Notes under the pieces: generated by a model
Seen by the model: the letters and a program-made list of their open reading frames with translations, nothing else
What the model was told of the DNA's origin: nothing
The model's database searches: none
Program-made: the position numbers and the translations under genes
Source of the DNA: Shinella sp.
GTDB lineage: Bacteria > Pseudomonadota > Alphaproteobacteria > Rhizobiales > Rhizobiaceae
DNA: 64,000 bases
Assembly: GCA_003248775.1 (NCBI GenBank)
Contig: QFQX01000023.1
Coordinates: forward strand, 940-64,939
Direction of reading: 5' to 3'
Part shown: positions 14,576 to 49,216 of the stretch, piece by piece
Layout of the letters: the number at the start of each line of letters is the position of its first letter
Numbering within the stretch: the stretch's first letter is position 1

Positions 14576-14652
14576 GGTCCCGTAGCTCAGCAGGATAGAG
14601 CACCAGATTCCTAATCTGGGGGTCGCGCGTTCGAATCGCGCCGGGATCACCA
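14576..14652 (+). tRNA. tRNA-Arg (anticodon CCT)
   Basis: Hand-folded cloverleaf. Acceptor GGTCCCG/CGGGATC, anticodon stem CCAGA/TCTGG with loop TTCCTAA (CCT), T-arm GCGCG-TTCGAAT-CGCGC, encoded CCA. Confidence 0.9.
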
Positions 14653-14654
14653 TT
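14608..14654 (+). repeat. att direct repeat copy 1 (47 bp, inside tRNA-Arg 3' part)
   Basis: ttcctaatctgggggtcgcgcgttcgaatcgcgccgggatcaccatt is identical to 26747-26793. The flanking bases differ on both sides. Confidence 0.95.
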
Positions 14655-15741
14655 ACTTAGCTTCATGTCCTACTTCCTGTTTTGCAGCCCGTTTTGCAAA
14701 ATCTGTTTCCAAGACGTTCTCGAACTTGGCGATGGCGTTGTCCGCCATGGTGCTGGTACGAGCCAGGTACCTGTCCAAAATGTCCTGTGCGCGCTTGAGT
14801 GAATGGCCTGTGACGGAGACGATTTCCCCGAGATTGCATCCGGCCTGAAAAAGCATGGTTACTGTCGTTCCGCGAATGTCGTGGAAGTGAAGATCGGCTA
14901 TGCCAGCCTCCTTGCACGTCGCCTCCCACAGCTCCGCCAGATAGCGCTTCTTGAAGGCGCGCCCGGTCTTGGTGGTTAGGATCAGCGGGGAGCACTTCTG
15001 CAGACCGTCCAGCGTCTCCTTCAGGGCCTTCGTGCATTTGATCGTCACGAGCCGCCCTTCCAGCTTACCGCGCCGCGCCTTGCCCTGCCGGAGAACGATA
15101 TGAGTGCCGTTATAGGCGCTCCAGGGAAGAGTGAGCAGATCGCCCTGCCGCTGCCCCGTGTGGAGTGCGAGGACCAGAGCTAACTTCAGCTCCGGTGCAG
15201 CCACCGCCATGAAGGCATCAACGTGCTCCGGAAGCCAGATCATTTCGGACCGGTCACCCTGATAGGCGCGCTCGAACCCGTCGAGAACGTTCACCTTCAG
15301 AGGACCATCTTTCGCCGCCCACGAAAGAACACGCGCCAAAACGGTCACACGGTTGTCAGCCTCGCGGGGCTTTTCTTCGGAAAACTGATCGTGCCACTTG
15401 ATGACATCGCGACGGAATGCCTTATCCTCGAGCGCGGCATGCGGGCATGAGCCATACTTCACTTCCCAAAACTTGAAGATGCGACGGTACTCAGAGCGCG
15501 TCGAATCAGCGAGCTTCCGCCACTGCTTCGTTTCTTCAAAGTCGCGCATTAGGCCGCCCAATGTGCCGGCATCACGTTTTCGTGCCCGCGCTTCCGCAGT
15601 AGCGATCGACGCGATGAATGCTGGCGACCCAGGCTCTCCAGAGAGAGGCGCCCCTGTGGCACGATGGTAATAGTAGGTCTTGATGGTACCGTCAGCGAGT
15701 TCACGCGTCACCTTGTTGATACCTTTGAGCCTAGCCAGCAT
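14653..15741 (-). CDS. int: tyrosine integrase
   Basis: C-terminal catalytic region HFHDIRGTTVTMLFQAGCNLGEIVSVTGHSLKRAQDILDRYLART (HxxR ... H ... Y). The stop codon overlaps the end of the att repeat. Start taken at the ATG at 15739-15741. Confidence 0.9.
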   Translation of the reverse strand: MLARLKGINKVTRELADGTIKTYYYHRATGAPLSGEPGSPAFIASIATAEARARKRDAGTLGGLMRDFEETKQWRKLADSTRSEYRRIFKFWEVKYGSCPHAALEDKAFRRDVIKWHDQFSEEKPREADNRVTVLARVLSWAAKDGPLKVNVLDGFERAYQGDRSEMIWLPEHVDAFMAVAAPELKLALVLALHTGQRQGDLLTLPWSAYNGTHIVLRQGKARRGKLEGRLVTIKCTKALKETLDGLQKCSPLILTTKTGRAFKKRYLAELWEATCKEAGIADLHFHDIRGTTVTMLFQAGCNLGEIVSVTGHSLKRAQDILDRYLARTSTMADNAIAKFENVLETDFAKRAAKQEVGHEAK

Positions 15742-15931
15742 TGTCTGCTTTCCATTGCTCGAAAGGCGACGCGGAAGCATCTACAACTGGAGAGGACCCG
15801 TCTTCGCCGATAAACTCGGTTCTTCCGTCGGGATGGTTGATGAACCGCGCCCTTGAATAACCCGCCGCCCGGGCGGCCTTAAAAAGGCTATTCGCGTCAG
15901 ACTGGAGGATGATAGACTGCCGTTTTGCCAT
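15731..15931 (-). CDS. small hypothetical protein (66 aa) overlapping the integrase start
   Basis: Internal ATG gives MAKRQSIILQSDANSLFKAARAAGYSRARFINHPDGRTEF.... Its 3' end overlaps the int start by 11 nt. No recognised motif. Confidence 0.4.
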   Translation of the reverse strand: MAKRQSIILQSDANSLFKAARAAGYSRARFINHPDGRTEFIGEDGSSPVVDASASPFEQWKADNAG

Positions 15932-16048
15932 TGACCCGTTCCTGTCGCTTAAAAGTGCGACCCCCGACGAAGCCGGGAATCGCGAGGGCGACGCGATATA
16001 CTTGCGCCACCAGGAGAACGATGACGGCACCAATGTCATCGAATTCAG

Positions 16049-16369
16049 TCAGTTCTTGATTCGAACCTCGATGGAGGTTGCATCGGAAGCTGCAGGGGAA
16101 GTGGCGTGTCCCACAAGGGTGTTTCCGCTAGCCGTGGCGGTGATCGCGGCTCCGGTCCAGTATGCCGCCGCACCTTCAGCCAAGCTCGTGCCCGCCGCCT
16201 TCGGAAGGCTGAATACACCCTCCAGCGCGACGGCAACCTTCTCGCCTTCCAGTGCCGCCTTGGTGGCAACGCCGAACAGGGCGCCGAACATTTTTGCCTG
16301 CCCCGAGGAAAGTCCCCCGGAAGGGGCTGTAAGGTCGATTGTATGACCGGGTTTGATGTAGTTTTTCAT
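16049..16369 (-). CDS. DUF2190-family phage head protein (decoration-like)
   Basis: MKNYIKPGHTIDLTAPSGGLSSGQ...FGVA...VFSLPKA...YW... follows the pattern I recall for DUF2190 phage proteins. Sits in the head module. Confidence 0.7.
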   Translation of the reverse strand: MKNYIKPGHTIDLTAPSGGLSSGQAKMFGALFGVATKAALEGEKVAVALEGVFSLPKAAGTSLAEGAAAYWTGAAITATASGNTLVGHATSPAASDATSIEVRIKN

Positions 16370-16596
16370 CTTCGATATCCTTTGACACCTTGAATGTTGA
16401 CGATGCGCGGAGCCCCGCCGAGAATGGCGGCGATCCGCCGTTCCACGTCAGCCAGTGCGGCCGCAAGTTCGCTGTCAGTGCGGAATTCCACTTCCTGATG
16501 CATGACAGGGGAGTGGAGAACCGCCCGCTTAAGCCCGCCAGCGCGGGCTTTGATGAGCTTGTCGCGAAACTCCTGAAGCTCTGCGAGTGTGATCAT
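16366..16596 (-). CDS. gpW-like head-tail joining protein
   Basis: 76 aa MITLAELQEFRDKLIKARAGG...EVEFRTDSELAAALADVERRIAAI mirrors the lambda gpW pattern (ELxxxRxxL...G...VEF...L..YI..LE..I). 4-nt and 1-nt overlaps with its neighbours. Confidence 0.6.
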   Translation of the reverse strand: MITLAELQEFRDKLIKARAGGLKRAVLHSPVMHQEVEFRTDSELAAALADVERRIAAILGGAPRIVNIQGVKGYRR

Positions 16597-18386
16597 TAGC
16601 TACCAGCCGCATGATCGAGCCGGGTCCAGGACCGCCATTCCAGCCAACCCAAACCAAAATCCTGCCGGATCTTGAAGTCGATGTTGTCGGTATCGAAGTT
16701 CTGCCGGCTGTCGGTGAAGGGCGCTTCATTGCCGCGAAGGAAGACGCGCGTCGCACCGTCCATTTTGGCGGGCTCCACCGCAAGCCAGCTCTTGGCAGAG
16801 TTGGTCAGGCGGGGTTCAACGATAATCTGGAGCTTGCCAGCAAGCGGGTTGACATCGGCGATAGAACTGGCCGTCACGCTGGCGAGGATGCGAACAGCCG
16901 TTTCTTCGTAGTCAGAATGGACAAGCCAGTGAGTGGGGTATTCCCCGATCATCACGTCGCCTTTGCCTTTCCGTTTCGCCATCTTCGAACGGAAACCCAT
17001 GATGTCGGCGATATAGCTCGCGGCATCCTGTGTGAAGGTCTCGATGTTGCCCCGGCTGGCGTGAAAGACAGGGTTGCCGTCCGCCATCGCCGGGCCTGCA
17101 AAACTCGTCTGCACCAGGAACGCGACCTGCCGGTCAGCGATGTCGGCCGCGAGCCGCTTGCCGTATTTCTGTCCCATGTTGCCGAGCCGCGCGCCCGCGT
17201 TGATCGACAACTCGCGGGTAATGCCGGTCACGCCACCGATTGTGTGGACGAAAACCGTCTCGCCGCTCTCATCGACATAGGAGGCGCGATAGGTTCCGTT
17301 CTCCAGCTTGTCACCAACGGCGAGCGTGGTCCAATCGACCATGCCGACAGTTTCCTTGTTGAAACTCGCGACCGTCGTACGCCCGAACAATGCTGACACC
17401 GGCGAAGCTTGCGCCTCATATTCCCGCCGCATTGAGAGATTGAAAGTTGCACCGGCGATGATCGCGTAGTCGCTGGTCGCCGCCGCGTTCCGCCTCACCA
17501 TGTCGTCAGAAAGACCCGTCAGATTTTCACCGGCGTTGCGAAGTAGGCGCCGAGCGAAAGCGGCCTCGCCGTCCGCGAAGACGGAAGCCGCCGCGCCCTG
17601 CGGCTGTTCGTTGCGGTTCATTGCATCGAAAGCCTCGATGGCGGCACGGCGGAGAACCTGCGGATTGTCGAGCGTTTCGTCATTGTGATTGGAAGCGGTG
17701 CGTACCGTGGGCTTGGCGTTGAGCGTGGCCAGCATGGTCTGCATCTTCTGTTCTGTCGTGGCATCGGTCGCGAGCACCGCATCGATCACCGTGTCCGCAA
17801 CGCCGGCCGCTTTCGCGAGGCTGCGGAGCTGCACATCATTTGCTTCCGAGGTATCGTCGTTTTCGCCCGGAACAGGATTGGCCTGCGGCATTGTCTGATT
17901 CCTTATCGTTGAGAGGGGGTCAGCCGGATTGACCACAAGCGAGCCTTCGACCAGCCGTCCGGCAAGGGCTGTCCGCATTTTCTTGCCCGATACCGGGTCT
18001 TTTCCATCGCGCCATTTCGTTACCGCGAAGGCGATCGAGAAAGCCGTCTGCACGCCGTCTTTGATGTTGGCGGCAAGGGCTTCGTTGTCGGTCCTGCTGG
18101 AAAGTGTGGCATCGGCGGTTACTGCGCGGGTGCCGTCCGTCAAGGTTTCGAGACGGAAGTTCGTCAGTCGCCCGATGGTGTCGCGAACGCTGGTGGAGTG
18201 ATCAGTCTGCAGAGGCAGACTTTGCGGCAGGCCGGCCGCAAAGAAGCTGTCGATGTCGATCACCTCGACATATGCCCCGCGATCTACATTGCCACCGGTG
18301 GCGGCAACCACAGTGAAGGTGCGAGTTTCGGGATTGAAGCTGTTCGGGCGGGCCTGCGCCTGAAACCGGCGAACCGTATGCGTCAT
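16596..18386 (-). CDS. prohead protease - major capsid protein fusion
   Basis: 596 aa. The N-terminus has an HK97/S78-type prohead protease signature (PLQTDHSTSVRDTIGRLTNF). The C-terminal ~330 aa resemble a capsid protein (Mu gpT/HK97-like). Overlaps the portal stop by 4 nt. Confidence 0.7.
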   Translation of the reverse strand: MTHTVRRFQAQARPNSFNPETRTFTVVAATGGNVDRGAYVEVIDIDSFFAAGLPQSLPLQTDHSTSVRDTIGRLTNFRLETLTDGTRAVTADATLSSRTDNEALAANIKDGVQTAFSIAFAVTKWRDGKDPVSGKKMRTALAGRLVEGSLVVNPADPLSTIRNQTMPQANPVPGENDDTSEANDVQLRSLAKAAGVADTVIDAVLATDATTEQKMQTMLATLNAKPTVRTASNHNDETLDNPQVLRRAAIEAFDAMNRNEQPQGAAASVFADGEAAFARRLLRNAGENLTGLSDDMVRRNAAATSDYAIIAGATFNLSMRREYEAQASPVSALFGRTTVASFNKETVGMVDWTTLAVGDKLENGTYRASYVDESGETVFVHTIGGVTGITRELSINAGARLGNMGQKYGKRLAADIADRQVAFLVQTSFAGPAMADGNPVFHASRGNIETFTQDAASYIADIMGFRSKMAKRKGKGDVMIGEYPTHWLVHSDYEETAVRILASVTASSIADVNPLAGKLQIIVEPRLTNSAKSWLAVEPAKMDGATRVFLRGNEAPFTDSRQNFDTDNIDFKIRQDFGLGWLEWRSWTRLDHAAGS

Positions 18387-19708
18387 GGCGTTTCGGTTTC
18401 CTTCTGCTGGGATTTGTTGGAAGAAGCTGCCGCGGAGGCAGGTTGGAATTCATCCGCCTCGATCTCTGCGCTGACAGCGGTGAAATCCCGGCCCCGACCT
18501 TCGATGACTTCCTTGCGGGACTTGAGGCCAGCCTGCACAAGCGCAATATCCGCGTTGGCTTCCTTCTCCCGGTCGATCTCCGGCCAGGTCGGCTCGATCC
18601 ATTTCGGGGAAGGGACCTCGATGTTTCGGCCCTTCAATTGTTCGATGGCGCGCCAGCGATTGAAGACCGGGAAGAGAAAACCGTCGATCAGCAACACCTT
18701 GCGGCGTGTCTCCGCTTTGCGGCGAGCGGTCAGCGCCCCGGCGCGATAGCTGGAGTAGTTTACGCCGGACAGGTCGCCGGTCATGTCCTCGTAGGTTACG
18801 CCAATGGCGGCAGCGCATTGGTGATAGATCAGTTTCAGGAAGGCAGGCAGATCACCCGCATCACCGCCCTGTGCGCTGCTGATCTCCTCTCCAGGGTTCA
18901 ACCGCACCAGTGCGCCGGGCTCGAGACTGGGGCGTGCGTCGCCAAAAATATCGGAACCGTCAGGCGATGTCAGAAAGGCGGTGAACAATGCCGAAACTTG
19001 AAGCTTCTTCAAACCGGCCTCTGTGGCGACGGAGGCGGTATTGACGGAAGTGAGGATCGGGGTCAGCGGCGAAATGCCCCGGACCTGTCCAGCATATTCC
19101 CGCTCGAACACGTGGATGACATCGCCGGCCTCGAAACGCTGCGATTGCATGATCCGGATGAAAGGATCATCTGGCGCATTCGGAAGCAGCCAGTAAGCGA
19201 CCCGGCGATCAAAGGCATCCAGCTCTACCCCTGCAATAATACGGTTGCCATCGCCGAGATCCTCGTTACGGCTACGGTCAAGCTGCTCAGGGTTCAGCAG
19301 ATGAACTGCGAACTCCCCGTCAATGACCGTCAGCAGTGCGAGAGCCTCGCCGGTCGTTACCCAAGAACGAATGGTGGCCTGCTGGAGCGCGGTCAGAGAA
19401 AGCAGGCGGGATGGATCAAATCGACCGTTATTAAATTCGGCATCGAGCACCTCGTCTGAGGTGTTCAGCCGAGTGCCGATTCCAACGACCATACTGACAA
19501 TAGTCTCCAGCGCCGAAGAGACAACGGGATCGTTCTTTGCCAACCCCGCTACTCGTTGGCCGACCACCTGCGCGCTTGCAAGCACGTCCCGGTTCGGAGA
19601 CGGCATACGCGGATCGTCCGGCCAGACCGCTGCTGCGTTCATGCTACGAGCATGATTTGCTGCGGATTTGTTCTTTCGGCGAATGAACCCGAGCATGTCG
19701 AACTCCAT
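18383..19708 (-). CDS. phage portal protein, lambda family
   Basis: 441 aa with lambda gpB-type features (GVNYSSYRAGALTARRKAETRRK..., WPEIDREKEANADIALVQAGLKSRKEVIEGRG). Confidence 0.85.
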   Translation of the reverse strand: MEFDMLGFIRRKNKSAANHARSMNAAAVWPDDPRMPSPNRDVLASAQVVGQRVAGLAKNDPVVSSALETIVSMVVGIGTRLNTSDEVLDAEFNNGRFDPSRLLSLTALQQATIRSWVTTGEALALLTVIDGEFAVHLLNPEQLDRSRNEDLGDGNRIIAGVELDAFDRRVAYWLLPNAPDDPFIRIMQSQRFEAGDVIHVFEREYAGQVRGISPLTPILTSVNTASVATEAGLKKLQVSALFTAFLTSPDGSDIFGDARPSLEPGALVRLNPGEEISSAQGGDAGDLPAFLKLIYHQCAAAIGVTYEDMTGDLSGVNYSSYRAGALTARRKAETRRKVLLIDGFLFPVFNRWRAIEQLKGRNIEVPSPKWIEPTWPEIDREKEANADIALVQAGLKSRKEVIEGRGRDFTAVSAEIEADEFQPASAAASSNKSQQKETETP

Positions 19709-19711
19709 GGA

Positions 19712-20290
19712 TTAGTTCTCCATGGCTTTCGAAAGAGACTGGCCGTCGGTGAGCTGGTCGAAGAGATGCGAGGCTCTGGAAATGAGAGGCGTCAGATTCA
19801 GCAGCGTCGCGCTACCCAACGGCTTGGAGCGATTTGACGCCACTGTTTTCAGCCTTTCAGTCACTTCATCGAAGGTACCGACGCAGAGGAAGCTGGGCAC
19901 CTTTTCAAGGCTGTCATCTTCCCCGCCGATGACGCGGCCGACCTTCCCGGACATCGTGAAGAAACAGGCGAAAATCACTTCCCCGTGTTCAACACGACGG
20001 GTGGCCTCCATAGCGAACTGCGGCCAAGCCTCGACACTCAGCTTGGCCGCATCCCGAGATGTCGACGTCTGAGTGACAAGAGCGTCAGCGATTCCGAGCA
20101 TGATCGCTTCAACAGGATAATAGCCGAAGGTGTCTACTTCCTCGTCAGCGCGAAGGTTAGACGGCTGGGGAGCTGGCCACTCAGGCTTGTCGCCCGGGAG
20201 GCGTGGTACCTGATTGCGCCGTGCCAGACTGCGAAAAGCCTGCTGATTAACGTCTGCAAGAGCGAGATAATGGCGGCGATAGAGAAGCAT
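19712..20290 (-). CDS. hypothetical protein (192 aa) at head of portal-capsid operon
   Basis: Long ORF ending 4 nt before the portal start. Start set to MLLYRRHYLAL (ATG 20288-20290), which has an upstream GAGG. No recognisable domain. Confidence 0.55.
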   Translation of the reverse strand: MLLYRRHYLALADVNQQAFRSLARRNQVPRLPGDKPEWPAPQPSNLRADEEVDTFGYYPVEAIMLGIADALVTQTSTSRDAAKLSVEAWPQFAMEATRRVEHGEVIFACFFTMSGKVGRVIGGEDDSLEKVPSFLCVGTFDEVTERLKTVASNRSKPLGSATLLNLTPLISRASHLFDQLTDGQSLSKAMEN

Positions 20291-20301
20291 GGAAAACCTC
20301 G

Positions 20302-20356
20302 TTGTGTCACTTGACACAAAGGTACGTTAAAATTCGACCTTGTGTCAAGCGACACA
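20302..20356. promoter_or_regulatory. two operator-like palindromes sharing TTGTGTCA
   Basis: 20302-20319 is TTGTGTCA-ct-TGACACAA (8-bp arms). 20341-20356 is TGTGTC-aagc-GACACA. Both lie in the 77-bp gap upstream of the 192-aa ORF. Confidence 0.6.
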
Positions 20357-20367
20357 TATCATCGCCT

Positions 20368-20832
20368 TTATTGCTCGCTGACCTTCCGCAGAATGTGCAG
20401 CGTGCTGTCGGTGAAATATTCGCGAGGCGAAAGTCGATGTCCGTCCCAAATGATGGCCGCCCAATAGCCCCAGCATCGGTCCATGTCGCTCCAGAGCCGT
20501 TCGACATGAAAGACATCGCGATTTTTGCCATTGTTCCACAGCAACTCATAGTTACCGGGACCAGTCCAAGGAACTTTCGGCGGAATGGCCGACACGATGA
20601 CGCTGCCAGATCCGTGCTTCGTCACCACATATTGACCGGAAGGCGCATCGCAGCCGGGATGCAGTTCCGCCAAGACGGATTTCAATTGAGCGATACAGGC
20701 CCCAACGCGTTCTTCGGCGGTGAGCGTCGGCGCGTCGACAGTAACCGCCGTGGCGGTGGTCGGTATCGTTGCGGCCATTCCGGCGACGGCAGATTTCAGC
20801 AGCTTGCGGCGGTTCAGGTGTTGCAGGTCCAT
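20368..20832 (-). CDS. Tat-signal exported hypothetical protein (154 aa)
   Basis: N-terminus MDLQHLNRRKLLKSAVAGMAATIPTTATAV matches the twin-arginine consensus (RRxLLK plus h-region). The mature part has no recognised domain. Confidence 0.6.
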   Translation of the reverse strand: MDLQHLNRRKLLKSAVAGMAATIPTTATAVTVDAPTLTAEERVGACIAQLKSVLAELHPGCDAPSGQYVVTKHGSGSVIVSAIPPKVPWTGPGNYELLWNNGKNRDVFHVERLWSDMDRCWGYWAAIIWDGHRLSPREYFTDSTLHILRKVSEQ

Positions 20833-20846
20833 GGTCCGTTTATCCT

Positions 20847-21029
20847 TTAGATTTCCAGTTCGCTTTCGAAATCGACATCCTCTTCGCGGTCCACGTCGCC
20901 ATCGAATTCGTTGAGGAGGTCAATGAGATTTTCGATTGTGGCTTCAATCTGTTGCCGCATCGCAGGCGTTAGCTCGACAATGCGGACAAAGCTATCCTGT
21001 TCGCGAAAATGGTATCCCATCGCGTTCAT
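20847..21029 (-). CDS. small acidic hypothetical protein (60 aa)
   Basis: MNAMGYHFREQDSFVRIVELTPAMRQQIEATIENLIDLLNEFDGDVDREEDVDFESELEI. AGGA lies upstream of the ATG at 21027-21029. 14-nt gap to the next gene. Confidence 0.45.
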   Translation of the reverse strand: MNAMGYHFREQDSFVRIVELTPAMRQQIEATIENLIDLLNEFDGDVDREEDVDFESELEI

Positions 21030-21134
21030 CCTTGTCCTAATGATGAAATCAGTGCATTGTAACGATAACGGCACGAAGGCCGTACGTCAATACGAAATCG
21101 GTACAATGTAATGATGTTGCCTATTCAGTGCAAA

Positions 21135-21353
21135 ATGGCGCGAACAGCGGTGGGATGGGGAGTACGAGACTTAGCCAAAGTGGCGGGCGTATCGGTCGAT
21201 ACGGTTTCACGATTTGAGCGAGGCGAGGATCTTTTACCTAGAACGCTTGCCGCCCTCCAAAGCGCCCTTGAAGCTGCCGGAGTGATTTTCGTTCCGGAAA
21301 ATGGCGAAGGAGCTGGAGTTAGACTAAGAAAATCCGTAAATGGGGCGAAATAA
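21135..21353 (+). CDS. XRE-family helix-turn-helix transcriptional regulator
   Basis: MARTAVGWGVRDLAKVAGVSVDTVSRFERGE...LEAAGVIFVPENGEGAGVRLRK is a typical short HTH_XRE protein. Divergent from the 60-aa ORF. Confidence 0.8.
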   Translation: MARTAVGWGVRDLAKVAGVSVDTVSRFERGEDLLPRTLAALQSALEAAGVIFVPENGEGAGVRLRKSVNGAK

Positions 21354-21370
21354 ACTCAAGGATTTGCACA

Positions 21371-21532
21371 ATGGAAAACAGAAAAATTGATGCGATCATC
21401 AAAGACATTTCCAAGCTTGACAATGAAGAATACATCGTTGTCGCAAAGGAAGTGAATAAGGGATTAATCGAGAGAGGAATTGTAAAACCAAAAGCAAATC
21501 CGCTCGGGCGCCGTTTTCCTTTTCGATTCTGA
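21371..21532 (+). CDS. tiny hypothetical protein (53 aa) in AT-rich segment
   Basis: Hand-translated: MENRKIDAIIKDISKLDNEEYIVVAKEVNKGLIERGIVKPKANPLGRRFPFRF. Below the ORF-track cut-off. Starts 17 nt after the HTH stop. Confidence 0.35.
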   Translation: MENRKIDAIIKDISKLDNEEYIVVAKEVNKGLIERGIVKPKANPLGRRFPFRF

Positions 21533-21584
21533 CTACCGATAACCTTTAACTTTCCGGAACTCAGCAAAGATTCGAGGATAAGAA

Positions 21585-21782
21585 ATGACCCAGACTGAAG
21601 ATTCGAGTGTCGATCCTTGGATTGATGGCGGCGTGACGGTCGGTCAATTGCGGGAGGCATTGTCGCTCCACCACGACGACTGCACGGTAATTTTCGGTCC
21701 GGACACGCAGAGAAATGCCCTGCGGTTCTATCGCGTGAAGAAGCGCGGTGAAGAACTCGTCCAGATTGAATTCAATCCCTGA
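21585..21782 (+). CDS. small hypothetical protein (65 aa)
   Basis: ORF track entry MTQTEDSSVDPWIDGGVTVGQLREAL..., preceded by aggataagaa. No recognised domain. Confidence 0.45.
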   Translation: MTQTEDSSVDPWIDGGVTVGQLREALSLHHDDCTVIFGPDTQRNALRFYRVKKRGEELVQIEFNP

Positions 21783-21980
21783 GAAATAGAACGGCTTGCG
21801 GAATCACCTGAAAACCGTCGTCACCTACGATGGTTCAGAATGGTAAGGAATTCCCCCACCCTATTGTCTCAACTGCTGAATTTCCGCAGTTAGAACCATC
21901 ACAGCGGATTCGAATGCGCATTTTTGTCAGCTTCGCAAAAGCCAGACATACTAAAAATTCACTTCCCATCCTCTACATAA

Positions 21981-21996
21981 TATGCGTAAACGCATA
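21981..21996. promoter_or_regulatory. 16-bp palindrome upstream of hicB-like gene (probable operator)
   Basis: TATGCGT-aa-ACGCATA lies 41 nt upstream of the antitoxin ATG. Further ATGCG/CGCAT half-sites follow at 22004-22016. Confidence 0.5.
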
Positions 21997-22036
21997 ATCG
22001 AATGAGCGAATGCGCTTATTGTCAGGAGTCCATCGC

Positions 22037-22279
22037 ATGAAGCACGTCTCAATCATCGTACGGGCCGCGTGGGATGAGGAAGCAGGCGTCTGGGTTGCCA
22101 CTAGCAACGATATTGACGGTCTGGCCGTTGAAGCCGCGACCATGGAAGAGCTGGAAAAGAAGGTTCTTGCCGCGGTTACCGATCTGCTGGAATTGAACGG
22201 TCCCGCCTCCGATTTGCCCGAAATTCCGGTGCACATCATGGCCGAGCACTTGGCAAAAGTACCGAATCCCTGTTTCTAA
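22037..22279 (+). CDS. hicB: DUF1902/HicB-like antitoxin
   Basis: MKHVSIIVRAAWDEEAGVWVATSNDIDGLAVEAATMEELEKKV... is a DUF1902-type fold pattern. CAGGAG RBS. Lies 8 nt upstream of hicA. Confidence 0.7.
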   Translation: MKHVSIIVRAAWDEEAGVWVATSNDIDGLAVEAATMEELEKKVLAAVTDLLELNGPASDLPEIPVHIMAEHLAKVPNPCF

Positions 22280-22286
22280 TCCCGCT

Positions 22287-22481
22287 ATGGCGGGATATCT
22301 GCGCGAACTGAAAGACCTCTTGACCAAGGCCGGATGTTATTACGTCCGGCCTGGCAAGGGCGACCACGAAATTTGGTTCAGTCCGATCACCAGTCGCCAT
22401 TTTACCGTCGATCATGGCGTCAAGTCTCGCCATACTGCTAACGAAACGCTGAAGCAGGCGGGATTGCCGAAGGCCTTCTGA
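22287..22481 (+). CDS. hicA: HicA family mRNA interferase toxin
   Basis: 64 aa with LLTKAGCYYVRPGKGDHEIWFSPITSRHFTVDHGVKSRHTANETLKQAGL, the canonical HicA/YcfA pattern. Confidence 0.8.
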   Translation: MAGYLRELKDLLTKAGCYYVRPGKGDHEIWFSPITSRHFTVDHGVKSRHTANETLKQAGLPKAF

Positions 22482-22484
22482 TCT

Positions 22485-24269
22485 TCATCTCATCCACTTG
22501 CTCTTGATCATCTGTGGCGATTGTTCTGATTTTACCACCTCGCCGCGACGCAACTCGTCGGCGCGCTGCATCCAGTTTATGTTCAGCATCTGGCGAGCCG
22601 CGAAGCCGTAAACCGTACAGTCCAGCCCTTCCGCCTGCTTGCCAGCGATACGCTCGAACCGCCGCGACGGCTGTCCCCGCGCGTAACGCACCACGATCCG
22701 TTCGCTGGCAAGCTGTTCGAACCATGATGCCGGAAGGTCGCTGGCAAACCGGATAGTGCTTCCGCGCGTCAGCCGAGCCACAAGATGGCTCTTGATGCCG
22801 TCAACGCCAATCAGGAACAACCGGCCGCGCTGGTTTTTCACCTTCGACATTTCGATCCACGGCCGGTTGCCCGCCACGCCCTTGCCGGCGAAGATCTTAC
22901 GGCGGTAGCGCGGAAAGCAAAAGGCATAGACCCGCTCCATGGTCTCGCCGTCACCGCTATCCACCACGGCCGCATCAAGCCCGATCCGCCCGCCCAGAGC
23001 ATGGGGCCAGCGTGTCGATAACAGGCTCTCCAACTCGTGCCAGGTTTCTTCATCATGTGGGTTACCCCAGATCACACGATGGCCCAGCACCAGGCAATTG
23101 CCGCCCTCGGTCCAGCCCAGGAATGTGATTTCAAGTCGGTCGCGCTGGACGTCAACGCCGACCGTCAAGGCCAGCGCCTCTGCAGGCACCAGGTCGAGGT
23201 TGAAGGTTTCGCGCCGGCTGAACAGGTCGTTTTCGTCGAGTTCTTCACCCCCCTCGTTCCACCCTTCGGCCAGGATCGTGTTGGTGAACACCTGCAACAA
23301 TGCCGGATCGTCCTTGGCGGCAAGAAATTCCTTCGCCAGCTTGCCCCAAGAGGCGTTCGCCAGCAGCGAGACCAGCGCCGTCAGGCGGAAGCCTGCGTGC
23401 CCCTTAACGTCGGGCCGTGTGGCCCGCCAGCGGCCGCCGGCGACCATGGCAGGCTTGTGCCGCTCCTCGATCAGACAACCGCATTCAGGGCAGGCATAGG
23501 CGGCCTTCTCGGGCTCGCCTTCCGGCCACTGGATATCCTTCCACCTGATTTCGTTGAAATGGCCGCACTCCGGACAGGCGACCTCGAAAATTCGCTGATC
23601 GGATTGCCCATAGGACCGCAGCACATGGGAGGTATCGGCGAAGACGGGTGTAGAGCCGATGACGATCTTGCGATCGGCGAAGGACAGGGTTCGCCGTTCG
23701 GCCAACAGAATCGGCGAGCCTTCAGCGCCGTTCTCCATGCCGTCCACCTCGTCACACAATAGCACACGGACATTGTGCCGGCGAAGATTGCGCGGTGCCT
23801 TGGCGGCAACCACCTTCAGCGAGCCGCCCGGGAAGCGGCGATGCAGCAGCGTGTTGCGGTCTCCGCTTTCTTCCTCGCCCTTCAGCAGCAGTCCGGCCAG
23901 TTCCGGCGAGGCGCCGAAGATAGGCTCGATATCGGAAACCATATAGTCGCGGCAATCGGCCTCTGTCGGCAGCAGGCAGAGGATCGGCGACGGATCGTTG
24001 GCAATATAGCCACCAAGCGCGCCGGTCAAAAGCGTGGTGAAACCGACGCGCACCGGTTTGACCAGCGTCACCCGCTCGATCGCCGGATCACCGATCGCGT
24101 CTGCGATATCGCGCTGGAACGGCCACAGCCGCACGGGGCCGGGCAGCGCCGACACGTCGTTCGGCAACATGACATTGCGCTCGATCCATTCCGAGAACTT
24201 CAGCTTCGGCGGTGGCATCAACGCCGCAAGGGCGCGTCGGCGGATGTTCGCGAGTGTTTCACTGGTCAT
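22485..24269 (-). CDS. terL: terminase large subunit, GpA (lambda) family
   Basis: About 594 aa. The N-terminal LPGPVRLWPFQRDIADA... motif and the zinc-ribbon-like CPECGHFNEI...CPECGC are typical of Terminase_GpA. Start at the ATG at 24267-24269. Confidence 0.88.
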   Translation of the reverse strand: MTSETLANIRRRALAALMPPPKLKFSEWIERNVMLPNDVSALPGPVRLWPFQRDIADAIGDPAIERVTLVKPVRVGFTTLLTGALGGYIANDPSPILCLLPTEADCRDYMVSDIEPIFGASPELAGLLLKGEEESGDRNTLLHRRFPGGSLKVVAAKAPRNLRRHNVRVLLCDEVDGMENGAEGSPILLAERRTLSFADRKIVIGSTPVFADTSHVLRSYGQSDQRIFEVACPECGHFNEIRWKDIQWPEGEPEKAAYACPECGCLIEERHKPAMVAGGRWRATRPDVKGHAGFRLTALVSLLANASWGKLAKEFLAAKDDPALLQVFTNTILAEGWNEGGEELDENDLFSRRETFNLDLVPAEALALTVGVDVQRDRLEITFLGWTEGGNCLVLGHRVIWGNPHDEETWHELESLLSTRWPHALGGRIGLDAAVVDSGDGETMERVYAFCFPRYRRKIFAGKGVAGNRPWIEMSKVKNQRGRLFLIGVDGIKSHLVARLTRGSTIRFASDLPASWFEQLASERIVVRYARGQPSRRFERIAGKQAEGLDCTVYGFAARQMLNINWMQRADELRRGEVVKSEQSPQMIKSKWMR

Positions 24270-24780
24270 GGGCAAGGTCCTCAAGGACTAGCCGGATCTC
24301 GGCTTCGATCACGGCCGCGTCATGCGCCGTCAAATGGGCGAGCTGCTGACGAACGCGGGAAGGCACAGCGAGGATGCCGGATCGGACCTTTCGCAGAATG
24401 CCGGACCATTCTCGTTCGACCTCGGATGCCTTCACCAGGTCGCGGCGAAGGACGGCGTTGCGCAGCTCGACCGCATCGGCCTGCTCTTTCGCAAGCCTTG
24501 TCTTTTCTGCGGTCAGGGTGTGGCGATGTTTATCCTCGCTGAAGGCAAAGGCGCTTTGTCCCTGCGCAATGCTCTTCCCAACATCGACGTTCTCGCTGAT
24601 CCATAAGCGTCCCCGCGCCACATCGATTTTGCCGTCGGTTTCGACAGGCAAGCCTTTCGCGATCATCTGCGACACTCGCCCAGCCGTCACACCGATCACC
24701 TTCGCAAAGCCACTCTTCGACACGGATCTCGGCTCGCCGATTTTCTGATTTTCCGGCAATGAGCTATGCAGGACACTCAT
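24259..24780 (-). CDS. terS: terminase small subunit (Nu1-like, N-terminal HTH)
   Basis: MSVLHSSLPENQKIGEPRSVSKSGFAKVIGVTAGRVSQMIAKGLPV... is an HTH resembling lambda Nu1. Overlaps the terL start. Confidence 0.65.
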   Translation of the reverse strand: MSVLHSSLPENQKIGEPRSVSKSGFAKVIGVTAGRVSQMIAKGLPVETDGKIDVARGRLWISENVDVGKSIAQGQSAFAFSEDKHRHTLTAEKTRLAKEQADAVELRNAVLRRDLVKASEVEREWSGILRKVRSGILAVPSRVRQQLAHLTAHDAAVIEAEIRLVLEDLAHDQ

Positions 24781-25018
24781 GACTTCAAGCCCTTTCCCTT
24801 TTTGTTTTAGCATTAAATTTCCCTAATATAGGCTGAGGCCCCGGGTCGACCCGCGCCCGCTTGGCACACCTCCCGGAAGGACCCACAGTCATCGAAATCC
24901 CCTTGCCAGACGTCGAAGCTCGGCAACGATTTCACTCTTGTCCTCATGGAACCGCTCTGGATTGCGATGCGATGGCGACAGTCTCGCGACATGCTCTGCC
25001 AGTGTGCTCAAGACATCC

Positions 25019-25074
25019 GGAAGGGAAGGGCCGACCGCCCTGCTGTGGTGGCCAGCGGTCGGCCCTTCCCTTCC
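25019..25074. repeat. perfect 20-bp inverted repeat (16-nt spacer)
   Basis: GGAAGGGAAGGGCCGACCGC (25019-25038) and its exact reverse complement (25055-25074). Located between the iteron array and terS. Confidence 0.9.
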
Positions 25075-25118
25075 TTGCCCTCGCTGGCCGACGCTGGCCC
25101 CGCTTGCCGAGGGTTGCC

Positions 25119-25320
25119 GCTCCACTCTGCTCCAGTCCGTTTCGCGGCTCATAACCTGCTCCACTCCCATACCCGGACGCCCGGTGCTCCAGTGCTCCAG
25201 TTGGGTTCCCCCCTGAAGGGGGGAAACCCCAACAAGAGCGTGAACTGGAGCAACCCCACATTTGGCGTCCAATACGCTCCAGTGCTCCAGTTTGCTCCAG
25301 TTGGTTTTTGAACTGGAGCG
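25119..25320. repeat. iteron array, candidate replication origin
   Basis: GCTCCAG occurs at 25129, 25186, 25194, 25276, 25284 and 25294. GCTCCAC occurs at 25119 and 25158. Inverted CTGGAGC occurs at 25245 and 25313. A GC hairpin TTCCCCCC-tgaa-GGGGGGAA sits at 25206-25225. The array lies immediately 3' of the helicase gene. Confidence 0.8.
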
Positions 25321-25324
25321 GGTC

Positions 25325-26593
25325 TCATTCTGCCCATTCCCCAACCCTCACAACTCGACGTTCTCGCCGCCGTTCATCCACTATGAAATCGATCTTCAAG
25401 GCTCCGTTTTCGATCCATGTTTTGAGAAGAGTTTTGATCCTCTGCTTTGCTGTTGGATCATCAGCATCAAGCCCAAGCACATCCGCGACGACCCTTCCGG
25501 CCCAGTTCGGCGAGCGGATATCTTCTCGCCATTCGGCGTTGTGGAGATGCTTCTGGACGTCGGACAGGTGCGCGATGGTCACGTCGTCGAAAGCGCCTGG
25601 CGGCTCCCACGCGGCCACCACGCCGACGTGATCGCCGTTCGGGAGCATCACGTTCTTGATCTCGTACCAATCAGAGATTTCAGCAGGCGGAGCCATATTG
25701 GCCTTATCCGAGTACATTCGGAAAAAGCTGCGATGGTTCGTTACGCCAAACTTGACCCCCTCTTCGGCAGACATCCGATTGATGGCCCGCACCTCGCGAG
25801 CGGCATCTGTCAGCGCCTTGCCGCCACGGGAGCTTTCCGCCGTTACCTCCGCATCACTGCCAAGTTTGCGAGTGTGGTGCACCAGGTGGATCGCGCAATT
25901 GGTAACCTCGGCGACCTTGCCCCACTCCTTCGCGACCGCATCCATTGCCGGGTTATCGTTCTCAGACACCGCATGCGACGAAATGAACGGATCGACGATG
26001 AAGACATCAATCTGCCTCGCCCGTATTTCCTCGATCATGGCGTCCATAACAGGGCGCTGGATGATGGTTCGGTTTTTGTTGGTGACAGCGGTGCAAAGCG
26101 GGTGGTCGCGCCCACTATCAACAAAGAAGCGATCTCCGATGTCGGCCGCCGAAATATCGTAGTGTTCGCAAGCTGCCTGAATGCGGCGCTGTAGCTCGTC
26201 GAGCGGGTCTTCAAGGTTCCAAAGCCAGACGCGCGACGCCTTCTCGACGTATTTGTTCAACAGTGCCCGCCCTGTCACCAGCGACAAAGCCTCAACGATC
26301 GACAGTGAGCTTTTCCCGACGCCGCCAGGCGCAACCGTTACCGTGACGAATCTGCGGATCAGGCTGCGCCCATAGATCCACTCTCGCTTCGGAAGGTCAT
26401 TCGGATCGGTCCAGCAATATGGCGTCGCGTAGACGCCGCTCTTCGATCCGTCAGGCAGCGGTTTCGGCAAAGGGGGCCGTCGCGACAGCACCTTGTCCTC
26501 TAGTAAAGCCTCATATTTGAGTCTTTGAGCTCGAGCAGAAGCCATCATGCGGAGAACCGCGTCAGGCACCTTGTGTTCTCCGGAACCCTCCAT
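25325..26593 (-). CDS. RepA-like AAA ATPase / replicative helicase
   Basis: 422 aa with Walker A VAPGGVGKSSLSI and Walker B IDVFIVDPF. This is the AAA_25/RepA-type architecture common in satellites and small integrative elements. Confidence 0.75.
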   Translation of the reverse strand: MEGSGEHKVPDAVLRMMASARAQRLKYEALLEDKVLSRRPPLPKPLPDGSKSGVYATPYCWTDPNDLPKREWIYGRSLIRRFVTVTVAPGGVGKSSLSIVEALSLVTGRALLNKYVEKASRVWLWNLEDPLDELQRRIQAACEHYDISAADIGDRFFVDSGRDHPLCTAVTNKNRTIIQRPVMDAMIEEIRARQIDVFIVDPFISSHAVSENDNPAMDAVAKEWGKVAEVTNCAIHLVHHTRKLGSDAEVTAESSRGGKALTDAAREVRAINRMSAEEGVKFGVTNHRSFFRMYSDKANMAPPAEISDWYEIKNVMLPNGDHVGVVAAWEPPGAFDDVTIAHLSDVQKHLHNAEWREDIRSPNWAGRVVADVLGLDADDPTAKQRIKTLLKTWIENGALKIDFIVDERRRERRVVRVGEWAE

Positions 26594-26746
26594 CCCGGTC
26601 AGCCAATCACCAGCGCCCGACTACCCGACGAAGCAGCAACGCCAGTTTGCTGGTTTGCAAAACCATAGGTAACACATTGAGTTGTCTGGACTGTATTTCG
26701 AGTTATTTTGCAGAAATCTGCTTCCGAAACATCAAACCGGGGCTGC

Positions 26747-26793
26747 TTCCTAATCTGGGGGTCGCGCGTTCGAATCGCGCCGGGATCACCATT
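26747..26793 (+). repeat. att direct repeat copy 2 (47 bp, tRNA-Arg 3' fragment)
   Basis: Identical to 14608-14654. It lacks the 5' half of the tRNA, so it is an att scar and not a gene. Confidence 0.95.
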
Positions 26794-47428: not shown

Positions 47429-49216
47429 ATGACGATCCTGATGCCCTTCGGTTCGGATGCAAAGGCAATCCTCGCCGCAATCAGCAAGTCCCAGGCAATG
47501 ATCGAATTCGATCTGCAGGGAAACATTCTCCTTGCCAACGAGAATTTCTGCAAAGCACTTGGTTATGATCTCGGGGAGATAAAAGGCAAGCATCACCGCA
47601 TGTTCTGCGATCCGGCCTATGTAGCCTCTCCAGAATACAAGGAATTCTGGGCCAAGCTCGCCAGGGGCGAATTCGATGCGCGCGAGTACAAGCGTATTGC
47701 CAAGTCCGGCAAGGAGGTCTGGATCCAGGCTTCGTACAACCCCGTTTTCTCCGGCGGTAAACCCTACAAGGTCGTGAAGTTCGCGACCGATATCACCGAA
47801 GCAAAGCTGAAGGCGGCGGAAGACTCCGGCAAGCTCGACGCAATCTCCCGTGCGCAGGCAACCATCGAATTCACGCCCGGCGGGGAAGTACTGACGGCCA
47901 ACGAGAACTTCCTGTCGACGCTCGGCTACACGCTGCCGGAGATCCGCGGCAAGCATCACTCGATGTTTTGCGAGCCCGCCTATGTCCACAGTAACGATTA
48001 CAAGCTCTTCTGGCAGAAACTCGCCGGAGGCGAGTTCATTGCCCAGGAGTTCAAGCGCATCGGCAAGGGCGGAAAGGTCGTCTGGATCCAGGCATCCTAC
48101 AACCCGATCTTCGATATGAACGGGAAAGTCTTCAAGGTCGTCAAATTCGCAACGGACATCACCGAACGTGTGCGCGCCGTTGATGATCTTGCAATTGGCC
48201 TGACCGCACTTTCGAATGGCGACCTGACGACGCGCATCGAGAAGGCCTTCATACCGACCCTCGAAAAGGTCCGCACCGACTTCAACGCCTCGATCGAAAA
48301 GCTGCAGGGCGCCATGCGCACCGTCGGCGAGAACGCGGAAGGAATTGCCGCCAGCTCGGCGCAGATCCACGCCGCCTCCGACAGCCTCGCCACCAGAACC
48401 CAACAACAGGCGGCCGCTGTCGAAGAGACTGCAGCAGCGCTGGAGGAAATCACTCAGACGGTCGCCGACAGTTCCAAGCGCGCCGGCGAGGCGGGCCAAC
48501 TGGTTGCCCGCACCAGGACAGCCGCGGAACGCTCCGGCCAGGTAGTGAAAAATGCCATTGGCGCCATGGGCCAGATCGAGAACTCGTCGAATGAGATTTC
48601 CAACATCATCGGCGTCATCGATGACATCGCTTTCCAGACCAACCTGCTGGCGCTGAATGCAGGCGTAGAAGCAGCCCGTGCTGGCGAAGCCGGCAAGGGT
48701 TTTGCCGTCGTCGCGCAGGAAGTCCGCGAACTCGCCCAACGGTCCGCGAATGCTGCAAAGGAAATCAAGACGCTGATCCATACTTCCGGCGATCAGGTGA
48801 AGAACGGCGTTTCGCTGGTCGGCGAGACTGGCAGGGCGCTAGACCAGATCGTGGCCGAGGTGCAGGAGATCGACCGCAACGTCGCCGCCATCGTCGATGC
48901 TTCACGCGAACAGTCAACTGCGCTGCAGGAAATCAATCGCGCCGTGAACGGGATGGATCAGAACACCCAGCAGAATGCGGCCATGGTCGAAGAAACATCG
49001 GCTGCCAGCCATAGTCTTGCGCGGGAAGCAGAAACACTCAAGAATCTGCTCGCGCAATTTAGATTTGGGCAACACTCTTCCGGTACAGTAAAACTAGCGC
49101 GTCCTGATGCTTCGCCCGTCGCATCCCCGGCACGCACACTCATGGCAAAGGTCGCCCGCGCCTCCACCGGCGCAGCCGCTTCTGCCCAGGCACAGGAAAG
49201 TTGGGAAGAATTCTGA
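47429..49216 (+). CDS. soluble methyl-accepting chemotaxis protein with two PAS domains
   Basis: Two PAS repeats ([20 protein letters not shown] / [20 protein letters not shown]). Conserved signalling hairpin [40 protein letters not shown]. No TM helix. C-terminal SWEEF. Confidence 0.88.

Follow-up and report, generated by a model that had tools for sequence, protein, structure and literature searches.

Phage-inducible chromosomal islands of the capsid-forming kind (cf-PICIs) are phage satellites that make tail-less T=4 capsids and acquire phage tails, with an adaptor and a connector protein setting tail compatibility; they also release tail-less capsids spontaneously. Their packaging operons are derived from HK97-type phages and carry an HNH nuclease and a head-tail connector. 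The cfPICI model of SatelliteFinder has 11 core components, of which at least 9 are required, and forbids tail and holin genes; the authors of that program concluded that the capsid and large terminase subunit (TerL) modules of cf-PICIs arose three times independently. The cf-PICIs named in a 2026 review all come from gamma-Proteobacteria and Bacillota, and the satellites of soil and plant-associated bacteria are described there as almost entirely unexplored. Here we describe a 12,186-bp insertion in a tRNA-Arg(CCT) gene of Shinella sp. (Rhizobiaceae), located in a 64-kb stretch of contig QFQX01000023.1 (hereafter ‘the window’, whose numbering is used throughout). We consider this element to be, most likely, an integrative, capsid-forming and tail-dependent phage satellite, and one member of a coherent alphaproteobacterial family of elements that are mostly 11–12 kb long. 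Our survey of the literature on satellites and PICIs in alphaproteobacterial taxa, the coverage of which was incomplete, found no description of this family.

Results

A tRNA-bounded insertion

ARAGORN located one tRNA gene in the window, an intact tRNA-Arg(CCT) at positions 14576–14652 (+ strand), and a repeat search returned a 47-nucleotide (nt) direct repeat with 100% identity between its two copies (14608–14654 and 26747–26793; spacing 12139), for which we estimate a chance expectation of ∼1e-19 for an exact 47-mer in 64 kb. The repeat extends from the anticodon loop to a point 2 nt beyond the CCA. The copy at 14608–14654 (attL) lies in the tRNA gene, the 3′ half of which is re-supplied by the attachment (att) core of the element, and the copy at 26747–26793 (attR) represents the displaced 3′ half of the tRNA. 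The TAA stop codon of a tyrosine integrase overlaps the repeat by 2 nt. The open reading frames (ORFs) between the repeats are intact and closely packed, with overlaps of 4 nt between the portal and protease-capsid genes, 1 nt between the protease-capsid and gpW-like genes, and 4 nt between the gpW-like and cement genes. An initial annotation of this DNA had described the perfect repeat around the 3′ part of the tRNA, the integrase stop codon within it and the tight packing of intact genes, and all three descriptions hold.

Head and packaging genes in the absence of tail genes

The ORFs of the window were searched against Pfam and PHROGs, with tail and lysis negatives taken at E ≤ 0.01. These searches identified a set of head and packaging genes on the minus strand: a lambda GpA-type TerL (22485–24284; PF05876, the GpA ATPase, 5e-85, and PF20454, the nuclease, 2e-87), a lambda-family portal (18383–19708; PF05136, 3e-67), an S78 prohead protease fused to an HK97-fold major capsid protein (16596–18386; PF04586 and PF25209), and a capsid cement or decoration protein (16049–16369; PF09956, formerly DUF2190, 2e-25, and phrog_122, 1e-28). 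The protease-capsid fusion is 596 amino acids (aa) long and also matches phrog_4523, ‘major head and protease’, at 4e-69. All four had been assigned to the same families in the initial annotation by motif reading. The Nu1-like small terminase subunit (TerS; 24259–24813) named there is well matched in PHROGs (phrog_57, 2.5e-31), but the Pfam Nu1 match reaches only 8e-4, which is below threshold.

The remaining gene of this set encodes a 76-aa protein (16366–16596, minus strand) that had been called gpW-like, and its assignment as a head-tail adaptor has weak support, in sequence from the Ad1 family (phrog_2545, 2.9e-5) and in structure from fold comparison. A profile of its family aligned to lambda gpW with an hhalign E-value of 3.5e-4 and a probability of 37%. 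An AlphaFold2 model of the protein (predicted local distance difference test score, pLDDT, of 78) consists of a helix, a beta-hairpin and a second helix, which is the gpW topology. The two best matches of that model among 350,542 PDB chains were lambda gpW itself (2l6q) and chain 8k38_M of the lambda portal-adaptor complex, at a non-significant E-value of 0.57. Non-significant fold E-values are usual for domains as small as gpW. A sequence search of the PDB returned 0 matches for the capsid profile and only spurious matches to designed proteins for the gpW profile. Three weak lines of evidence, each sub-significant on its own, agree in pointing to a gpW-like identity for this predicted protein.

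No ORF of the element matched a tail, tail-completion, holin or endolysin family in either database, as the initial annotation had concluded from the translations, and no HNH family was matched either. We also found no candidate for a head-tail connector or an FII-like head-closure gene, the cement gene being followed only by a 66-aa ORF and the integrase gene. Heads made by this element would consequently need the head-closure protein of a helper as well as its tail, and with a single, weakly assigned neck protein the mode of tail docking is speculative. That the element lacks genes for a tail, for head closure and for lysis is our reason for inferring dependence on a helper.

The initial annotation had also argued that 12 kb is far below the size of an autonomous tailed phage. 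That argument fails, since the non-satellite phage Astrid, cited in a published paper, has a genome of 11.6 kb; it is gene content, and not size, that speaks against an autonomous phage. A miniature tailed phage whose tail proteins are hidden among the five ORFs without annotation would nevertheless have little room for them: the identified head, packaging, recombination and replication genes occupy ∼8.4 kb and the cargo and repressor region ∼1.4 kb, leaving only ∼1.4 kb of unannotated ORFs on the same strand (60, 154 and 192 aa). Across the family of related elements described below these ORFs are sporadic or hypervariable, unlike structural genes; one of them carries a Tat-type signal, and the one preceding the portal gene is a MerR-type helix-turn-helix (HTH) protein in relatives. 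When modelled with AlphaFold2, the 192-aa ORF does not resemble any tail fold, and neither Pfam nor PHROGs gave a tail or lysis match. We regard an autonomous miniature phage as extremely improbable.

A family of elements with one gene order

We mapped the proteins of the window onto related loci (numbered L001 onward) drawn from representative genomes, assemblies, IMG/VR and plasmids. The protease-capsid fusion has 74 homologs at E < 1e-10, many of them on contigs of 10–15 kb, and the hosts include Shinella, Brucella/Ochrobactrum, Martelella, Pannonibacter, Paracoccus, Pseudooceanicola and Methylocystis. Approximately 30 related loci from Rhizobiales, Rhodobacterales and Methylocystis display the same gene order and stop at the integrase and tRNA. 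The order runs from the replication module through terS, terL, a cargo region with an opposite-strand HTH gene, a pre-portal ORF, the portal gene, the protease-capsid fusion, gpW, cement and (a small ORF or xis) to int and the tRNA. It is kept in genome loci L001 and L007–L016, in metagenome contigs L002, L017, L023, L024 and L027, in IMG/VR entries L030–L036, L041 and L042, and in the plasmid-borne locus L088, and it persists down to ∼29–40% capsid identity (L027, L041, L042 and L088). The placement of head genes against int, with rep at the far end, had been singled out as unusual in the initial annotation and is a property of the relatives as well.

Wherever the integrase-side end is visible (L001, L007, L009–L016, L027, the element-sized contigs L002, L017, L023 and L024, and those IMG/VR entries that reach it), the integrase gene lies within ∼0.2–1 kb of the last head gene and no tail or lysis module intervenes; in genome loci with flanking sequence a tRNA follows beyond the integrase. 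Neither the profile searches of the window nor the precomputed Pfam annotation of the relatives contains a cryptic tail gene among the ORFs of unassigned function. L088 falls outside this set: a 209-aa hypothetical protein follows its cement gene, after which there is a gap in the PLSDB gene table.

Nine relatives are bounded by direct repeats derived from their target tRNAs, and eight of these measure 11,339–12,294 bp, the ninth measuring 14,504 bp. The integration targets include tRNA-Ser(GGA/TGA), Phe, Arg(ACG/CCG/CCT), Gly, Trp and Met. The integrases are either 72–78% identical to that of the window (as in L008 and L013) or, in elements at other tRNAs, only ∼24% identical, and changes of target match swaps of int together with the adjacent small ORF. 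The replication module is also exchanged among members: an AAA_25 helicase is found in the window and L014, a Toprim protein plus AAA_25 helicase in L017, an HTH_36 initiator in L001, a family-A DNA polymerase in L027 and a large toprim protein in L088.

The ratio of non-synonymous to synonymous substitution rates (dN/dS) is 0.08–0.23 for TerL, the portal and the protease-capsid fusion (0.08–0.2 for the fusion), with dS ≥ 1 and synonymous sites saturated. The head and packaging genes are under strong purifying selection. A value of 1.49 for TerS (window versus L009) is an alignment or frame artefact and was ignored.

These data bear on the possibility that the element is a decaying prophage remnant, that is, the inert head half of a lambda-like siphophage that has lost its tail, lysis and early regions. 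A single deletion could produce head-only content with head genes abutting int, and PHASTER-type surveys find many ‘incomplete’ prophages in Hyphomicrobiales. Here, however, both att repeats are perfect and all genes are intact, the same bounds and order recur in ∼30 loci in different genera and at different tRNA targets, size is held at 11.3–12.3 kb, and dN/dS remains ∼0.1–0.2 after synonymous saturation. The family moreover has replication modules of its own and a conserved cos-like site, and its members do not go back to a single locus passed on vertically at one site. The deletion-remnant explanation, to which we assign almost no weight, is largely refuted by this recurrence together with the narrow size range, the intact att sites and the purifying selection.

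Several individual relatives deserve separate description. The 14.5-kb size outlier is explained by an insertion: locus L012 carries a 365-aa transposase-like ORF (L012:13251–14348; IS30-type by eye) between the cement/xis region and int, and its int may be disrupted or displaced. The chromosome of Brucella pituitosa CCUG 50899 (NZ_PYSY02000001.1) harbors two diverged copies (L010 and L011; 452203–473972 and 1630950–1652719), one at a tRNA-Phe with a 47-bp direct repeat and the other without a repeat within the examined flank. Shinella zoogloeoides (CP093528) is another carrier. An optional ORF of ∼90 aa (MEIQLLG...RVWPP...; SpoVG-like by eye, with no Pfam match) lies between the cement and xis-like genes in a subset of elements (L008:12342–12617, L009:11990–12262, L010/L011:12258–12599 and L017:10553–10825) and is absent from the window.

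More distant arrangements were also encountered. In L038 (IMG/VR UViG 2681813562_000002) an integrase-like match is found not behind the cement gene but upstream of terS, which is a classical PICI-like orientation, and among the pre-portal ORFs compared that of L038 alone has detectable similarity (35%) to that of the window. Locus L039 (IMG/VR UViG 3300047160_030740; 4681 nt, 41% capsid identity) consists of portal, protease-capsid, gpW and cement genes, then ∼650 nt, and then the N-terminus of TerL. It has no int, rep or recognizable terS in the ∼650 nt between cement and TerL, and could be explained by another arrangement of the genes, by a tandem or concatemeric form, or by an element of far smaller size. 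The 10.69-kb Rhodovastum atsumiense ‘plasmid RHOAph’ (L086; NZ_OW485609.1, 1–10690) encodes a protease-capsid fusion (26% identical), together with ParA, a RelE/Phd pair and a DUF3987 primase-helicase. A portal and terminase are not among its annotated genes, and it may be a capsid-encoding episome of another kind.

Recombination and replication genes and candidate cis-acting sites

The tyrosine integrase (14653–15780, minus strand; 362 aa at the start chosen by the pipeline) matches PF00589 at 6e-13 and phrog_1 at 6e-34. Beside it lies the 66-aa ORF mentioned above (15731–15931, minus strand; MAKRQSIILQ...), which had been read as a 102-aa ORF in the initial annotation. It has no profile match in Pfam or PHROGs, is kept just upstream of int in those elements that share the window's integrase type, and is called as a gene in L024. 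With other integrase types the same slot holds other small proteins (of the AlpA/Xis HTH type by eye). The small ORF changes together with the integrase type, as is expected of an integrase and its excisionase, and from its position and conservation we regard it as a candidate excisionase or recombination directionality factor.

At the opposite end of the element is a RepA-like AAA_25 replicative helicase (25325–26593, minus strand; PF13481, 4e-36; phrog_25693, 8e-51). It has no primase domain, and PHROG primase/helicase families match only over its helicase part. An iteron array of CTGGAGCA and its variants in both orientations occupies 25119–25322 (repeat families D1–D6 and I3–I15). The window has six exact copies of CTGGAGCA, and all of them are confined to 173 bp (25128–25300) directly downstream of repA, in agreement with the helicase and iterons that the initial annotation had proposed. 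This array is likely to be the origin of replication (ori). An iteron ori beside the replicase gene is also a feature of Staphylococcus aureus pathogenicity islands (SaPIs).

Between the iterons and terS lies a conserved motif at 24835–24884 (minus strand; GGGTCCTTCC-N14-GCGGG-N10-CCCGG), which across elements takes the form of GGGTCCTTCC and then GCGGG-N10-CCCG(A)GATTTC. Of 24 elements, 20 have the motif at a fixed distance, 520–602 nt upstream of the TerL start and ∼60 nt upstream of terS. In the window the GGGTCCTTCC motif occurs once (∼24875–24884, minus strand). Sequence on its 5′ side is unrelated between elements with different replication modules, and conservation starts abruptly at the motif itself. 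Given the Nu1/GpA-type terminase this is the expected location of cos, and we propose the motif as a candidate cos site. An ‘orf59’ (24813–24992) implied by the initial annotation is probably not a gene, because it covers this conserved non-coding motif.

Two further features lie in the same interval. A perfect 20-bp inverted repeat with a 16-nt loop (25019–25074) is situated between the iterons and the cos-like motif; it has no T-run, and could be a rep terminator, part of cosB or a recombination site. A short coding-like stretch at 24889–25010 (minus strand; …FHEDKSEIVAELRRLARGF*) ends exactly at the GGGTCCTTCC motif and recurs at the equivalent position in L007, L013, L014 and L017, all of which have replicases of the AAA_25 type. 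The stretch may represent a small gene located between ori and cos; the long ORF in its frame overlaps the iterons.

The attP junction of an excised form would read ATCAAACCGGGGCTGC-(47-bp core)-ACTTAGCTTCATGTCC, and the empty attB site AGGATAGAGCACCAGA-(core)-GGCCCCTTTAAGCACA. The window element occurs with 100% identity as a 12,152-nt contig in several sequencing runs; runs with the identical element include SRR35124216, SRR34083688 and ERZ27312619. The ends of these ∼12.15-kb contigs lie inside the att repeat, and they therefore represent assembly breaks at the repeat and not circles.

Regulation, cargo and flanking genes

An 80-aa XRE-type HTH protein (21111–21353, plus strand; HTH_31, 7e-8; HTH_3, 4e-6) is encoded mid-element, divergently from the morphogenesis operon, and heads a short operon with the cargo genes; an opposite-strand homolog is present in most relatives. 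AlpA was not found in the window. From its position and conservation the XRE-type protein is a candidate master repressor. It lacks a peptidase domain, which makes self-cleavage in an SOS response unlikely and an anti-repressor, plausibly supplied by a helper, the most likely inducer. A promoter and terminator scan of the divergent region gave nothing above shuffled expectation, and a full CtrA box (TTAA-N7-TTAA) is absent from the window.

The cargo (21585–22481, plus strand) consists of orf65, a DUF1902/HicB-like antitoxin (22010–22279) and a HicA toxin (22287–22481), with matches to PF08972 (4e-21), PF07927 (1e-7) and phrog_353 (4e-14), and this patch, in which the XRE gene lies as well, has a GC content of 0.47–0.52 compared with ∼0.60 around it. 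Other members carry different genes in the same slot: PD-T7-4 (7e-67) in L008, PDC-S45 (8e-71) in L015, SoFic-like Fic proteins (9e-14) in L001 and L027, a DUF2971/PDC-S31-like protein in L004, and a methyltransferase/HNH set in L088. We infer that the slot between terL and the portal gene holds toxin-antitoxin or anti-phage defence cargo that benefits the host.

The 192-aa pre-portal ORF (19712–20290, minus strand), suspected to be a regulator, has no Pfam or PHROG match in the window. A positional counterpart is present in every element and is hypervariable, with ∼15% identity as against 55–83% for its neighbors TerL and portal; 7 of 15 such homologs have an N-terminal MerR_1 HTH (best 1.4e-7). 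The AlphaFold2 model of the window protein (pLDDT 64) has 66 disordered N-terminal residues and gave no significant PDB fold match. We consider this ORF, the least understood part of the element, to be a candidate regulator or helper-specificity factor.

The 154-aa ORF (20368–20832, minus strand) matches phrog_38066 weakly and occurs sporadically in the family, with homologs in L009 and L013. Its translation starts with a twin-arginine-type signal, NRRKLLKSAVAGMAATIPTTATA (twin-arginine-like motif NRRKLLK), and similar N-termini are found in L009 and L001, which suggests an exported protein, perhaps with a surface or exclusion function. An acidic 60-aa ORF (20847–21029, minus strand) is the first gene of the long leftward operon; it is kept in many elements and called as a gene in L024, and has no family match.

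Outside the element the flanks are housekeeping DNA, with CobW and S11 and M20 peptidases on one side and an extracytoplasmic function (ECF) sigma factor, a P-type ATPase and Dxr on the other. Unrelated to the element, the window also encodes a neighboring pair of PAS-PAS methyl-accepting chemotaxis proteins, which are paralogous and alike in domain layout (47429–49216 and 49914–51590, both plus strand).

Discussion

A proposed life cycle and the points that weigh against it

The interpretation that we favor, an integrative satellite that forms its own capsids and depends on foreign tails, leads to the following proposed cycle. The 80-aa XRE repressor, which would share a transcript with the HicAB cargo, would in a lysogen silence the divergent operon that extends from orf60 through the portal, capsid, gpW and cement genes to xis and int, and probably rep-terS-terL too. 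Derepression would probably occur via an anti-repressor, most plausibly provided by an infecting or induced helper phage, upon which the element would excise and then replicate from the iteron ori. The terminase would cut the cos-like site upstream of terS, and unit-length 12-kb DNA would enter small self-made capsids. For these, T=4 is the likely size class, given the 11.6 kb packaged by P4 and the T=4 capsids made by the cf-PICI EcCIEDL933, which is 15.5 kb long. The heads would carry portal and gpW only, and the FII-like head-closure protein, the tail and lysis would be furnished by a helper siphophage with a lambda-like neck.

A number of observations weigh against this proposal. The only recognizable neck protein is weakly assigned (E-values of 2.9e-5, 3.5e-4 and 0.57), several small ORFs of the element are without annotation, and the candidate repressor and candidate cos roles are both read from position and conservation only. 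The window holds no helper prophage, its flanks and remaining 37 kb being chromosomal. The exact 79-nt attP junction had 0 matches in IMG/VR; no circularly permuted contig was found among element-sized contigs by terminal overlap or in IMG/VR; and a scan of JGI metagenomes returned 7 loci, 0 of them permuted. What we propose on excision, replication and packaging, on the size of the capsid and on the acquisition of tails is deduced from sequence.

Some of the same observations would suit a helper-independent vehicle, in the form of tail-less DNA-filled capsids that are transferred by a tail-free route or of a host-domesticated agent resembling gene transfer agents (GTAs). Rhizobiales and Rhodobacterales are rich in GTAs. 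The lack of a helper prophage in the window would fit, and the spontaneous release of tail-less capsids by cf-PICIs offers a precedent. On the other hand, the int/xis pair, the many tRNA targets, the swapping of modules, the presence of two copies in one genome (L010 and L011) and the plasmid copy are typical of selfish mobile elements and not of a domesticated locus, and having a cos-like site of its own speaks for an element that packages itself and not random host DNA. A portal with a gpW-like adaptor would form a tail-docking vertex, and there are no lysis genes for release. We consider a helper-independent vehicle unlikely.

Implications

Within a tail-dependent satellite, the head genes would represent a further, separate origin of capsid-forming satellites beyond the three proposed for cf-PICIs, and the strategy of making one's own head and stealing a tail would have arisen once more, this time out of another phage lineage and with the genes in another order and the neck reduced. 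A more detailed scenario combines an independent (fourth or later) lambda-derived invention with a neck reduced one step further, to gpW only, that uses foreign head-closure proteins and tails, the source of which would be, in place of a conventional helper prophage, either free tails of unrelated phages (‘tail piracy’) or RcGTA-like tails. As one joint statement it is a long shot. RcGTA-like gene transfer agents are near-universal in the same host orders. If such tails were used, two alphaproteobacterial gene-transfer systems would be linked.

The family itself is compact and easily recognized in Rhizobiales, Rhodobacterales and Methylocystaceae, including Brucella/Ochrobactrum, Shinella, Paracoccus and roseobacters. 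With its defined slot for toxin-antitoxin and anti-phage cargo it is likely to spread defence systems among alphaproteobacteria of soil, rhizosphere and marine habitats. Members are already present in IMG/VR as small, unnamed proviruses. The detectors in use today would probably overlook such elements or label them ‘incomplete prophage’: the cfPICI model of SatelliteFinder calls for at least 9 of 11 components, all HK97-type, and PHASTER works with completeness classes. The cos-like motif, the unit length of 11–12 kb and the swappable replication modules provide handles both for experiments and for a search model.

Comparison with phages and known satellite systems

The closest GenBank phages are distant from the element, with best identities of < 30% for the capsid protein and 37% for TerL, and in IMG/VR contigs of 38–51 kb appear only at ≤ 27% capsid identity, all closer ones being 10–13 kb long. 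Rhodobacter phage RcKemmy shares with the element TerS, a GpA-like TerL, a gpW-like protein, the portal, a protease-capsid fusion and a small protein after the capsid gene. It is, however, a 41-kb siphophage with a capsid only ∼27% identical to that of the element. Its gpW gene lies between terL and portal, whereas in the element family gpW lies behind the capsid gene and the gap between terL and portal is the cargo and regulation slot. Beyond its head genes come the gene for a head-tail attachment protein and a complete set of tail genes, in place of which the element family has xis, int and the tRNA after the cement gene. Judged by gene order, the element family ends exactly at the head/tail border of an RcKemmy-like module, of which RcKemmy would display the ancestral layout.

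The resemblance to cf-PICIs (EcCIEDL933 and KpCIDSM30104) is one of logic. Both are integrative and ∼12–15 kb long, with their own int and replication module; both encode TerS, TerL, portal, prohead protease, an HK97-fold capsid protein and at least one adaptor (a weakly assigned candidate in the element), and neither has tail or holin genes. Small self-made capsids that need phage tails are expected for the element as they are known for cf-PICIs. MerR-type regulators, which are among the PICI/cfPICI regulator profiles, are present in relatives as well. These likenesses could indicate a true cf-PICI family member that shares ancestry with EcCIEDL933-type islands and inhabits a new host class. 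The components point elsewhere: whereas the cf-PICI packaging operon is HK97-type with HNH and connector genes, none of HNH, connector and AlpA was found in the window, and the head and packaging genes are lambda-like, with a Nu1-like TerS, a GpA-type TerL, a PF05136 portal, gpW and a PF25209 capsid domain fused to its protease. The element has a cement protein and lacks a connector or head-closure gene, and where cf-PICIs have AlpA it has a candidate XRE repressor and, in relatives, a MerR-type pre-portal ORF. Depending on the member, replication in the family is assigned to a RepA helicase, an HTH_36 initiator, PolA or a Toprim-helicase. The gene order is inverted, int adjoining the head genes and rep lying at the far end, and the hosts are Alphaproteobacteria, while the 2026 review gives only gamma-Proteobacteria and Bacillota. 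We accordingly view common descent with cf-PICIs as unlikely. The initial annotation had offered a cf-PICI-like satellite or a related new lineage; the second of these fits, and a cf-PICI proper does not.

Classical PICIs, SaPIs and P4-like satellites resemble the element in their direct-repeat bounds, a divergent switch between repressor and operon, an iteron ori beside the replicase, a variable hotspot for defence and toxin-antitoxin genes, and a size of ∼11–15 kb (11.6 kb for P4). They remodel the capsids of their helpers and have no capsid, portal or TerL of their own, whereas the element encodes all three. Acinetobacter Aci01-2-Phanie and the Streptomyces satellites MiniFlayer and MulchRoom, compared here by description only, have small genomes with their own capsid genes and use helper tails. 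They were isolated as virions, are lytic or have lost integration, and come from unrelated hosts, whereas the element is integrative and has int and xis.

RcGTA-type agents, finally, resemble the element in having a ∼15-kb cluster related to phage heads, in their small capsids and in the orders of their hosts. GTAs have tail genes but no int, att sites or replication module; they stay at one locus, pass vertically from parent to offspring and fill their particles with random host DNA. The element, in contrast, is tail-less, has int, att and rep, belongs to a family that occupies many sites and carries a cos-like site of its own.

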